From assembly GCA_040349255.1 (NCBI GenBank), contig JBEQUE010000144.1:15524-79523 (forward strand): a DNA stretch of 64,000 nt, given 5' to 3'. Both the position numbers and the translations under genes were made by a program. How positions within the stretch are numbered: the first letter of the stretch is position 1; every line of letters begins with the position of its first letter. The DNA is from Acidobacteriota bacterium (GTDB lineage: Bacteria > Acidobacteriota > Thermoanaerobaculia > Multivoradales > UBA5704). Positions 197 through 6,904 of the stretch are shown here, in pieces. The notes under the pieces are model-generated. The model ran no database searches. It saw only the letters and a list, made by a program, of their open reading frames with translations, and was not told the DNA's origin.

Positions 197-2299
197 ATGC
201 CGACGATGGAAATCGAGATCGCGCTGCGCGCCGAGGCGCCCGGGAGCTACGGTGTCCAGCTCCGCGTCGTGCGGTCCGACAGCGAAATGATCATCCAGCC
301 GGCGGAGGGCCGCACCGGCTTCGACCTCGAAGCCCTGGGCGACTCCAGGCTCAGCCCCCTCGAATACGGCCGGCTGCTGAGCGGCAGACTGTTCGCGCCC
401 GCCGAGATCGGCCAGCGCTTCGCCGAGACGCGGGCGGCGGCCGAGACCGACCGGCTCCGGATCCGACTGCGCCTCCAGATCCATTCCAACGCCCCGGAGC
501 TGCACGCCTTGCGCTGGGAAAACCTGACCGATCCGCGCAATGGAGAATGGCTGCTCACCAGCGAGACCCTGATCTTCTCGCGGCTGGTCGCCGGTGCCGA
601 CTGGCAGAGGGTCGCCCTGCGTCCGCGCAGCCAGATGCAGGCCCTGGTCGCGGCCGCGAACCCGTCCGACCTCCAGTCGGTCTGGAACCTGCCGCCGATC
701 GATCCCGCCAAGGAGCTGGAGCGCGCCCGGGCCGGTCTCGAAGACAAGGCGCAGCCGCTCGAAGGCGTGCCTGTGACGCTGCCGAACCTGGCGGAGGCCC
801 TGCGCCGGAAGGACTACGACATCCTCTACCTCGCCTGCCACGGCGCGCTGCGCGACGGCGAGCCCTGGCTTCTCCTGGAGGACGAGAACGGGAAGGCAGC
901 CCGGATCGGCGGAGCGCACCTCGTGGAGCATCTCCGCAGCCTGGAGGTCCGGCCGCGGCTCGTGGTGCTCGCCTCGTGCGAGAGCGCCGGGACGGGCCAG
1001 GGCGCGGCCGGCGCGCAGGCTCTCGCAGCCCTGGGGCCGCGCCTGGCCGAGGCGGGAATCCCCGCGGTGCTCGCCATGCAGGGGAGCGTTTCCGTGGAGA
1101 CCCTCGCCCGGCTCCTGCCCGACTTCTTCCAGGCCCTGTGGGAGGACGGCCGGGTCGATTACGCCCTGGCGGTGGCGCGCAGCCGGATCCGGGATCGTCC
1201 CGACCGCTGGATGCCGGCCCTCTTCCTGCGGCTCAAGAACGGCCGCATCTGGTACGTGCCGGGCTTCGCCGGCGAAGAGACCCTGCGGCGCTGGGACTCC
1301 CTCCTGAACAACGTCCACTACCACCGCTGCACGCCCATCCTGGGCTCGGGCCTGCTCGAGCCGCTGGTTGGCACCTCGCAGGACCTCGCCGCGCTCCTCG
1401 CCGGAGAGGGATTTCCCCTGGAGCCGCACGAAAGGGAGGACCTGCCCCAGGTCGCCCAGTACCTCGCCACCATGCAGCAGGACCAGTTCGTGCGCGACCA
1501 GTGGCTCGAGATCCTGCAGCGCGAGCTGAGCCGCCGTTTCGACGTCGAGCCGGCCGCGTCGGCCGATACCGAGCCCCTGCCGGAAGACCACGTCGAGCGC
1601 CTGAGCGCCTCCTTCTCGCGCGCCGGGGCCTTGCTGCGAGGGCGCGATCCGGTCGAGCCGCACAAGGTGCTGGCGAGCCTGCCCTTCCCGCTCTACATCA
1701 CGACCAACCCCGACAGCCTGCTGGTCGACGCGCTGTCGGAAGCGGAGAAGGAGCCCCAGGTCGAGCTCTGCCGCTGGCGCCAGGACCCGGACCTGACCTG
1801 GCCGCCGTCGCTCTACGACGACCGCGGCGGCGGGGACGAGGACTACGTGCCCAGCGAGAAGCGGCCCCTGGTCTACTACCTCTTCGGCCGCCTCCAGGAG
1901 CCGAAGTCGATCGTGCTCACCGAGGACAACTACTTCGACTACCTGATCGGCGTGAGCCGTCCGGCGCAGGATTCGCCGCACCCGGAGCCGGTCCTGCGGG
2001 CCCAGGGCGGCACCTCCCTGCTCTTCCTGGGCTTCCGGCTGGAGGAGTGGGATTTCCGCATCTTCTTCCGCAGCCTGGCCGGCCGCGAGGGGTCCGGCTG
2101 GAAAGTGCAGAGAAAAAACCTTACGCACGTCGCGGTGCAGATCGATCCGGAAGAGAGCCGCATGCTCGACGCGGAGCGCGCCCGGGACTACCTGCGGCAA
2201 TACTTCGGCGAAGCGAAGATCGACATCTACTGGGGCAGCGTCGCGGACTTCCTGCGCGAGCTGATCGGGCGCTGGGAGGAATGGAGGAAGAAACATTGA
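197..2299 (+). CDS. CHAT (caspase-like protease) domain fused to a SIR2-like (SIR2_2-type) domain protein
   Basis: 700-aa ORF. CHAT signatures: LHALRWENL, His/Cys dyad YLACHG ... LVVLASCESAG. C-terminal SIR2_2-like motifs: ILGSGLLEPLVG, YITTNPDSLLVDAL, LVYYLFGRL, LLFLGFRLEEWDFRIFF. Confidence 0.85.
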   Translation: MPTMEIEIALRAEAPGSYGVQLRVVRSDSEMIIQPAEGRTGFDLEALGDSRLSPLEYGRLLSGRLFAPAEIGQRFAETRAAAETDRLRIRLRLQIHSNAPELHALRWENLTDPRNGEWLLTSETLIFSRLVAGADWQRVALRPRSQMQALVAAANPSDLQSVWNLPPIDPAKELERARAGLEDKAQPLEGVPVTLPNLAEALRRKDYDILYLACHGALRDGEPWLLLEDENGKAARIGGAHLVEHLRSLEVRPRLVVLASCESAGTGQGAAGAQALAALGPRLAEAGIPAVLAMQGSVSVETLARLLPDFFQALWEDGRVDYALAVARSRIRDRPDRWMPALFLRLKNGRIWYVPGFAGEETLRRWDSLLNNVHYHRCTPILGSGLLEPLVGTSQDLAALLAGEGFPLEPHEREDLPQVAQYLATMQQDQFVRDQWLEILQRELSRRFDVEPAASADTEPLPEDHVERLSASFSRAGALLRGRDPVEPHKVLASLPFPLYITTNPDSLLVDALSEAEKEPQVELCRWRQDPDLTWPPSLYDDRGGGDEDYVPSEKRPLVYYLFGRLQEPKSIVLTEDNYFDYLIGVSRPAQDSPHPEPVLRAQGGTSLLFLGFRLEEWDFRIFFRSLAGREGSGWKVQRKNLTHVAVQIDPEESRMLDAERARDYLRQYFGEAKIDIYWGSVADFLRELIGRWEEWRKKH

Positions 2300-6524: not shown

Positions 6525-6904
6525 CGGGCTCCTTTGATGCCACCATCCGCCTGTGGGATTTTGCGACCCGCCGGGAGTTGCTTCGACTGGAGGGGCACGC
6601 TGACAGAATCCTGAGCCTGGCGGTGACTCCGGACGGTCGCCACATCGCATCGAGCTCGGACGACAATACAGTGCGTGTTTGGCGTCTCGATACAGGGGAG
6701 TGCCTGGCTGTTTTCTTCGCAGAGGGAATAAGCGCTGCTTGCGCCATCTCGTTGGACGCCCAGTGCGTCTATGCTGGCGAACTGTCGGGGAAACTGCACT
6801 TCCTGAAACGGAAACCCTCCGTCATTCCTCTGAAAGCAAGTCCCCCCACAACACATCCGCAACCCGGCGGTTCGCTTCCATCAGATCGACGCCCTTCTCC
6901 TTGA
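6461..6904 (+). CDS. Continuation of the WD40 repeat protein in another frame (2-3 more WD repeats). Together with 4692-6524 it is either a frameshifted pseudogene or a sequencing indel.
   Basis: In this frame the WD pattern continues upstream to ~6392 (LEDEGNAWPTILDLTTGRVVGELRGHEDPV...IRLWDF...VRVWRLDTGE). It overlaps the convergent gene 6822-9968 by ~80 nt. Confidence 0.5.
   Translation: MRGHEDPVETALFLPGDNRILTGSFDATIRLWDFATRRELLRLEGHADRILSLAVTPDGRHIASSSDDNTVRVWRLDTGECLAVFFAEGISAACAISLDAQCVYAGELSGKLHFLKRKPSVIPLKASPPTTHPQPGGSLPSDRRPSP

Follow-up and report, generated by a model that had tools for sequence, protein, structure and literature searches.

The 64,000-nucleotide (nt) stretch analysed here, called the window throughout, comes from contig JBEQUE010000144.1 of an Acidobacteriota bacterium and carries near its beginning two adjoining genes, designated A and B. 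Gene A encoded a CHAT protease domain joined to a SIR2-like domain, and gene B encoded a P-loop NTPase of the nSTAND1 type followed by a single hydrophobic helix. Together they form a real, widespread and co-conserved module, to which a predicted C25-like cysteine protease of the gingipain/caspase fold belongs as a recurrent third gene. The best explanation of the data, to which we give an even chance of being correct, is that the C25-like protease, A and B constitute one unit gated by a STAND NTPase, with B sensing outside the cell; this predicted outside-facing sensor on an NLR-type NTPase is the most interesting outcome of the analysis. The initial annotation of the window had described a three-gene cluster at nt 197–6904, consisting of A, B and a WD40-repeat gene, C. 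The recurrent third gene was found upstream of that interval, and sequence comparisons placed C outside the A-B system, either as the detached sensor of a neighbouring gene, D, or as an orphan protein with a helical arm and WD40 repeats.

Linkage and distribution of genes A and B

Gene A (nt 197–2299, plus strand) encoded 700 amino acids and overlapped by 19 nt with gene B (nt 2281–4674, plus strand; 797 amino acids), and 17 nt separated the stop codon of B from the start of gene C (nt 4692–6904, plus strand). These coordinates and spacings were as first annotated. The domain assignments made at that time (CHAT, SIR2_2, nSTAND1 and WD40) were confirmed by Pfam, and all the motifs quoted for them were present.

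A-family loci were collected, 80 from species-representative genomes and 5 metagenomic, and their open reading frames (ORFs) were scored with profiles built for this analysis. Linkage was assessed on 82 full-length A genes for which the sequence extended 1.5 kb or more downstream. In 76 of them the next gene downstream was an nSTAND1 gene, in one such a gene lay directly upstream, and in several loci the start and stop codons of the two genes overlapped or nearly abutted. The juxtaposition of A and B is therefore not a matter of chance, but the co-conservation did not extend to C (see below). The order C25-like gene, A, B recurred in L004 and L005, the closest relatives and the source of two closer B orthologues, and a third contig with a close B orthologue had A followed by B; no WD40 gene followed B in any of these three contigs.

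The 80 genome loci were distributed among Chloroflexota (54), Acidobacteriota (8), Actinomycetota (5), Verrucomicrobiota (4), Proteobacteria/Desulfobacterota (4), Moduliflexus/Vecturithrix (2), Planctomycetota (1) and others (2). An 11-Mb Chloroflexia genome possessed at least three copies, with contig OY969916.1 carrying loci L003, L006 and L043.

CHAT protease and SIR2-like domain of the gene A product

In the protein predicted for gene A, the CHAT domain (PF12770) occupied residues 57–335, corresponding to nt 365–1201 (E = 1.4e-30; 107.2 bits versus a cut-off of 24). The CHAT dyad, His215 (nt 839–841) and Cys261 (nt 977–979), was invariant in all 203 A-family members. An AlphaFold model of A had a predicted local distance difference test score (pLDDT) of 75, and its N-terminal half matched the SAVED-CHAT structure 8tl0. 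The family comprised at least 1424 homologues with the CHAT plus SIR2_2 architecture and a length of about 690 amino acids; the best 120 were all full length and shared 46–50% identity with A. In two loci, a large protein with an A-like CHAT domain was encoded beside a standard A gene, the domain being fused to WD40 repeats in L040 (nt 1614–6617) and to a fragment matching nSTAND1 in L070 (nt 7160–9727).

The C-terminal half of A gave a SIR2_2 match at residues 499–669 (E = 2.6e-17; 63.7 bits versus a cut-off of 24.5), the whole SIR2-like domain spanning about nt 1328–2203, and its model matched the SIR2 domains of KomC, ThsA and DSR2 in Foldseek searches (E = 6e-11 to 1e-6). A had been thought to combine a protease and an NADase on one chain. 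The conserved CHAT dyad agrees with the former, but the latter was not borne out. In an alignment of the family profile with the solved ThsA, SeThsA and KomC, the motif VYKMHG corresponded to VYHLFG in the family, so that Phe replaced the catalytic His. The position equivalent to ThsA His152 was Phe563 (nt 1883–1885) in the window; among the 203 members, 193 had Phe, 6 had Tyr and 4 had Leu at this position, and none had His. An Asn equivalent to ThsA N112 was present in 132 of the 203 (65%). Elsewhere in the domain, Asp577 and Gln648 were invariant and His644 was found in 190 of the 203. Since the canonical catalytic His is missing, a regulatory, nucleotide-binding or docking module appears more likely than a ThsA-type NADase. 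The retained SIR2 fold and the many invariant residues suggest that the domain is under selection, for a different or non-catalytic role. A conserved SIR2-like domain lacking the canonical His also calls for caution in assigning NADase labels automatically.

C25-like protease gene

The window opens inside the C25-like gene, of which only the 3′-end is included (nt 2–193, plus strand, frame 2), comprising the last 63 codons and a TAG stop at nt 191–193; the rest lies beyond the window start. This stop codon was situated 3 nt before the ATG of A. The translation matched the C-termini of proteins of 476–506 amino acids encoded beside the A and nSTAND1 genes in L001, L002, L004 and L005. These four proteins were 52–61% identical among themselves, and three of them passed the cut-off of Pfam Peptidase_C25 (PF01364) with 41.2, 27.0 and 26.4 bits (cut-off, 23), the fourth scoring 11.9; the match was limited to the C-terminal part of the profile, and the window copy was visible for 63 residues only. 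An HG...C dyad was retained by 95% or more of 34 C25-like members. A C25-like copy was located within 10 kb in 41 of the 82 loci, its commonest positions being directly after the nSTAND1 gene (15) and directly before A (6). Fused forms were also found: nSTAND1 with a C25-like domain and no transmembrane helix (L074, nt 10666–15099, and protein P0144), and a C25-like domain with CHAT (P0420).

NTPase and predicted membrane topology of the gene B product

The nSTAND1 domain (PF20703) covered residues 22–395 of B, nt 2344–3465 (E = 6.5e-30; 105.5 bits versus a cut-off of 27.1), with the P-loop GAGKTS at residues 62–67 and the Walker B motif LVFDQFEE at residues 151–158. Among 120 close homologues, 118 had a G.GK[ST] P-loop and 119 a Walker B motif of the DQxEE type. 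B orthologues with 47–78% identity covered 85–99% of the protein.

Hydropathy was calculated over 19 residues with a threshold of 1.6 for a helix. B had one hydrophobic helix, at residues 489–511 (nt 3745–3813), consistent with the membrane-spanning STAND protein initially proposed, and a helix was present in 115 of the 118 closest B homologues having a C-terminal region. In the complete nSTAND1 partners of A, a hydrophobic helix came right after the NTPase in 64 of 68, and WD40 repeats followed it in the same ORF in 48 of 68. The hydrophobic segment was single in 70 of 71 helix-bearing nSTAND1 proteins adjoining A. In these 71 proteins, the 15 residues before the helix contained on average 5.3 Lys plus Arg residues versus 2.6 in the 15 residues after it, and the preceding flank was the richer one in 62 (Wilcoxon p = 1.4e-11). 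By the positive-inside rule, a flank rich in Lys and Arg lies on the cytoplasmic side of the membrane. The bias thus predicts a cytoplasmic NTPase and a C-terminal region outside, and the WD40 repeats of the relatives, being fused after the membrane helix, are predicted to be extracellular parts of the same chain rather than a separate cytoplasmic protein. Other C-terminal domains seen in the B clade were LysM, PD40, CBM9, FGE-sulfatase and DPPIV-N, all typical of exported proteins.

In B itself, the region after the helix (nt 3814–4671) contained a coiled coil and a small conserved alpha/beta domain and ended in a beta-rich extension. When this region was aligned within the sub-clade of the window, the alpha/beta domain measured about 100 amino acids; three of the sequences also had the beta-rich extension, which comprised about 95 amino acids with several cysteines. 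A model of this predicted ectodomain (pLDDT 72) gave no informative structural match, and its fold was not assignable.

Locus L011 possessed two tandem nSTAND1-helix-WD40 paralogues (nt 11179–14643 and 15519–19349) after one A gene. Their NTPase parts were 86% identical, whereas the parts after the helix were only 42% identical, a divergence resembling that typically seen in immune receptors.

Proposed mode of action

The C25-like gene, A and B are tightly packed and are probably co-translated. In the proposed mode of action, a ligand or a disturbance of the envelope would be sensed outside the cell by B, the outer part of which would be the coiled coil and alpha/beta domain in this bacterium and one or two WD40 propellers in most relatives. 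Transmitted through the helix and the coiled coil, the signal would permit the cytoplasmic STAND modules to oligomerise in a nucleotide-dependent manner, as Apaf-1 and Avs proteins do. The oligomer would recruit A, whose caspase-like protease (His215/Cys261) would be activated by proximity. Growth arrest or cell death would result once A had cleaved the C25-like protease (a cascade of two proteases), cellular targets, or both. The C25-like protease could accordingly be either a substrate or a further member of the cascade. All steps, beginning with sensing, are modelled by analogy on Apaf-1, Avs and SAVED-CHAT, and we infer the topology, the order of activation, the substrates and the biological role. 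A physical link among the components is supported by the nSTAND1 plus C25-like and C25-like plus CHAT fusions, and by a single-chain protein with CHAT, SIR2-like and STAND parts encoded in the window at nt 17455–21909.

Several points weigh against this account. The topology of B is predicted from hydropathy and charge bias only. No adaptor of the EAD, Death-like, TRADD-N or CARD type was detected in A or B with Pfam at E ≤ 0.01, a threshold at which remoter adaptors could be missed. The C25-like gene accompanied about half of the loci, in varying positions, and may be accessory. For the strongly conserved SIR2-like domain, a non-canonical chemistry is conceivable. Finally, most of the sequences used came from metagenome-assembled genomes.

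Extending the proposal beyond the window, a large NLR-like STAND clade may consist of true transmembrane receptors that read the outside through WD40 or other exported domains and, once the cytoplasmic NTPase assembles, fire a dedicated caspase-like protease with a catalytically remodelled SIR2 domain, often together with a second, gingipain-like protease, and that have expanded and are diversifying in filamentous Chloroflexota. This generalisation is put forward tentatively, as somewhat more doubtful than not.

Genes C and D

The WD40 repeats of C gave a Pfam E value of 2.6e-63, and about 14 blades were counted, in keeping with the minimum of 12 first given. C had been annotated as one ORF; however, a 1-nt frameshift was located near nt 6395. 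Frame 0 stops at nt 6524, and WD40 repeats resume in another frame at nt 6461–6904. Restoring one base at about nt 6395, between GGC and CTT, yielded a protein of 737 amino acids, residues 2–706 of which aligned end to end with the 720-amino-acid homologue P0243 at 52% identity. Residues 1–150 formed a helical, APAF-1-like arm, with a weak match to Pfam APAF1_C (E = 0.059). An exhaustive HMMER search recovered 2194 relatives of the arm, typically at residues 420–700 of proteins of 1100–1500 amino acids and directly after an NTPase of the NACHT/AAA_16 type, in agreement with the likeness to the NACHT-WD40 spacer that had been noted. The arm was absent from all 85 A-family loci. C had neither a hydrophobic helix nor a signal peptide. 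The GC content at third codon positions (GC3) was 0.92 in A, B and the C25-like fragment alike, compared with 0.65 in C and 0.71 in D. C is accordingly predicted to be a cytoplasmic protein of foreign composition, and the part of third-chain WD40 sensor once ascribed to it is not supported by its GC3 or by the loci of the closest B orthologues, where no WD40 gene was found. C was also considered as a 3′ half detached from an nSTAND1-WD40 gene; this idea was dropped because the arm had no BLAST match to the linkers of such proteins or to any B homologue.

Gene D (nt 6822–9968, minus strand; 1048 amino acids) is convergent with C, the final 83 nt of which overlap its 3′-end. Pfam identified Mrr_cat, CHAT, AAA_16 and NACHT in D and no sensor repeats, giving the architecture Mrr_cat, CHAT and NACHT-like NTPase. 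D and a further gene, E (described below), had weak partial matches to Avs1b and Avs2, respectively, in PADLOC and NCBIfam searches, far below the cut-offs. Residues 653–1043 of D aligned to the NTPase of arm-bearing single-chain proteins, whereas A and B did not. D is predicted to be a separate system of the Avs/bNACHT kind. Its N-terminal Mrr part had a GC3 of 0.52 versus 0.80 for the rest and was not covered by the closest homologues, of about 770 amino acids, which suggests a recent domain gain. In L088 (nt 6519–13014), and also in L089, a 47%-identical relative of D lay tail to tail with a gene for a TPR protein of 1382 amino acids, separated from it by 28 nt.

We give slightly less than an even chance to the reading that C is the sensor part split off from D, so that the two genes would make up a second system, Apaf-1/bNACHT-like in kind, that was inserted beside A and B as foreign DNA. 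The NTPase of D (residues 653–1043) and the arm of C (residues 2–160) match consecutive parts of P0377 and P0279, and in the joint alignment the last residue of D abuts the first of C without a gap. D lacks sensor repeats of its own, C and D are both lower in GC3 than the host-like genes, and the relative of D in L088 is likewise abutted by a convergent gene for a repeat protein. On the other hand, the convergent orientation excludes co-transcription, the closest D homologues, of about 770 amino acids, terminate at the same point without a sensor and have no arm-WD40 neighbour in L087, no arm domain was found in the TPR protein of L088, and P0243, the closest full-length homologue of C, stands alone without a nearby STAND gene. 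The frameshift in C is a further difficulty. An invertible segment was considered for C and D and rejected: no inverted repeats flank C, and C is not shortened in comparison with the stand-alone P0243.

Biological role and cellular location

That the A and nSTAND1 genes are not an anti-phage system, and serve instead as a device for outside-in signalling or programmed cell death in filamentous bacteria, responding to kin or neighbours, envelope damage or predators, is in our view rather unlikely. A sensor predicted to be outside would not meet phage proteins made in the cell, one genome has several copies (on contig OY969916.1), and the 54 Chloroflexota loci among the 80, many from filamentous members, together with the two from Moduliflexus/Vecturithrix, fit such a device, as does the association with a multicellular habit that Aravind and colleagues draw for such systems (PMC7159879, PMC8195603). 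Against it, toxin-antitoxin genes, an integrase and further CHAT/STAND genes, including STAND genes of the defence type, were found around the A-B loci, a context of conflict; paralogous sensors diverge fast, as in immune receptors; and phage particles and their injection machinery do touch the membrane from outside.

It is improbable that the segment after the nSTAND1 domain is a buried or peripheral helix and that the whole system, WD40 propellers of the relatives included, resides in the cytosol as Apaf-1 and Avs do. The characterised STAND sensors are all cytosolic (established knowledge; cf. PMC7159879 and bioRxiv 10.64898/2026.01.04.697583), and the L074 protein and P0144 lack the helix and have a C25-like domain instead. 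However, the hydropathy of the helices ranged from 1.6 to about 3.0, with most of the listed examples at 2.3–3.0, the position of the helix was kept in 115 of the 118 homologues, the positive-inside bias was strong, and LysM, PD40, CBM9 and FGE domains lay on its C-terminal side.

Lastly, the reading that A, B and C are one three-gene system, with C as a detached cytoplasmic sensor and A as protease plus NADase, is very improbable and largely overturned by the comparative data, for although the three genes share a strand, the B-C gap is only 17 nt with no terminator-like site in it, and WD40 repeats are the commonest sensor of the nSTAND1 partners (48 of 68), no WD40 gene lies downstream of the closest B orthologues, the arm of C is absent from the loci and matches no nSTAND1-WD40 linker, the WD40 repeats of relatives follow a transmembrane helix whereas C has neither helix nor signal peptide, C is frameshifted and differs in GC3 from A and B, and the catalytic His of SIR2 is missing. 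A tidy same-strand cluster of three genes can thus combine parts of two unrelated systems, a lesson for annotation.

Genome neighbourhood

A scan for promoters and terminators in the window found no usable operon boundaries. Two blocks, nt 4500–10000 and nt 14500–22000, dropped in guanine-plus-cytosine (GC) content from about 0.70 to 0.51–0.60 and therefore have the look of foreign insertions, apparently forming a small island of CHAT/STAND genes. The first block holds C and D, and the second holds gene E (nt 17455–21909, plus strand; gene GC 0.52). E encoded a single chain of 1484 amino acids in which CHAT-like and SIR2_2-like domains were joined to a STAND P-loop NTPase, weakly Avs2-like, and to a long helical C-terminal region. 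The SIR2_2-like score of 23.7 bits was slightly below the Pfam cut-off of 24.5; by inspection of the motif only, KLFG again had no His, and a single-sequence search of the PDB with this region gave no match. E is predicted to be a fused counterpart of the pairing of A with a STAND protein.

At nt 10552–11907 (minus strand), a protein of 451 amino acids with an eCIS_core domain (DUF4157-type, HExxH) was encoded, containing about five copies of the repeat NPRAAAL...TITK.E..EL.G. It was flanked by two copies of a lipoprotein gene, one truncated (nt 10181–10588) and one full (nt 11980–13251). An orthologue of this lipoprotein was located just upstream of the C25-like gene in L005, and the gene order around the system thus differs between the two genomes. 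The product of nt 15022–17430 (minus strand; 802 amino acids) combined a methionyl-tRNA synthetase core, an anticodon-binding domain and a C-terminal methyltransferase of the FkbM type.

Comparison with known systems

PADLOC 2.0 contains no model for the A-B system; A had weak matches to SAVED_CHAT and ThsA only, and the Avs models did not match B. Within the searchable library, no paper was found that describes the system or combines CHAT, SIR2 and this NTPase. The pair had been suspected to be undescribed, and this view stands: the A-B core is an undescribed variant within the STAND-gated effector and conflict systems and does not represent a new category. A 2025 preprint (10.1101/2025.11.14.688446) mentions "transmembrane STAND ATPases" in passing, among protease-linked sensors.

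The nSTAND1 clade was named by Kaur et al. in 2021 (PMC8195603), among the adaptor-coupled conflict systems of multicellular bacteria. Those systems (see also PMC7159879) share with A-B the PF20703 NTPase clade, a separate and often caspase-like effector, variable C-terminal sensors (WD40, FGE) and an enrichment in filamentous or multicellular bacteria. They use effector-associated or Death-like adaptors, whereas none were detected in A or B, and the searchable text of these papers describes no fixed CHAT-SIR2-like partner, no C25-like protease and no near-universal helix between NTPase and sensor.

Avs and bNACHT proteins share the logic of effector, STAND module and repeat sensor, and effectors of the SIR2, protease and Mrr types occur among them; D and E resemble them. 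They are single cytosolic chains with TPR-like sensors that bind phage proteins, whereas A and B are two chains, of which B is predicted to span the membrane. The SIR2_2 fold of A is shared with ThsA, DSR2, SIR2-HerA and KomC, which include the best structural matches to its C-terminal half; however, the His of the defence NADases (ThsA H152, DSR2 H171, KomC H146) aligns to Phe in A. With SAVED-CHAT and Csx29/Craspase, A shares a His/Cys protease of clan CD that is kept inactive until an upstream sensor assembles. Those proteases are activated by cyclic oligoadenylate or target RNA, whereas the predicted activator here is a STAND NTPase.

The Apaf-1 apoptosome, with the bacterial Apaf-1-like STAND proteins, likewise couples a STAND protein with a WD40 sensor to a caspase-fold protease on a separate chain, possibly with a protease cascade. 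Apaf-1 is cytosolic, contacts its protease through CARD-CARD interaction and is an AP-ATPase (NB-ARC), whereas B has an nSTAND1 domain and no CARD, and its sensor is predicted to be on the far side of the membrane; it is gene C, rather than B, that carries the Apaf-1-like helical arm. To our knowledge, the STAND and NLR immune sensors studied to date in bacteria, plants and animals all sense their triggers within the cell. Should the predicted topology be true, hundreds of bacterial genomes would contain NLR-type switches that listen outside, which would extend the role of this class and offer a bacterial counterpart, open to testing, of caspase activation by receptors. Toll-like and death receptors resemble B by analogy only, in having an outer repeat sensor, one helix and an inside module that nucleates effectors; no homology is implied, and the inside module here is a P-loop NTPase. 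In effect, a death receptor and an apoptosome would then be merged in one bacterial protein.

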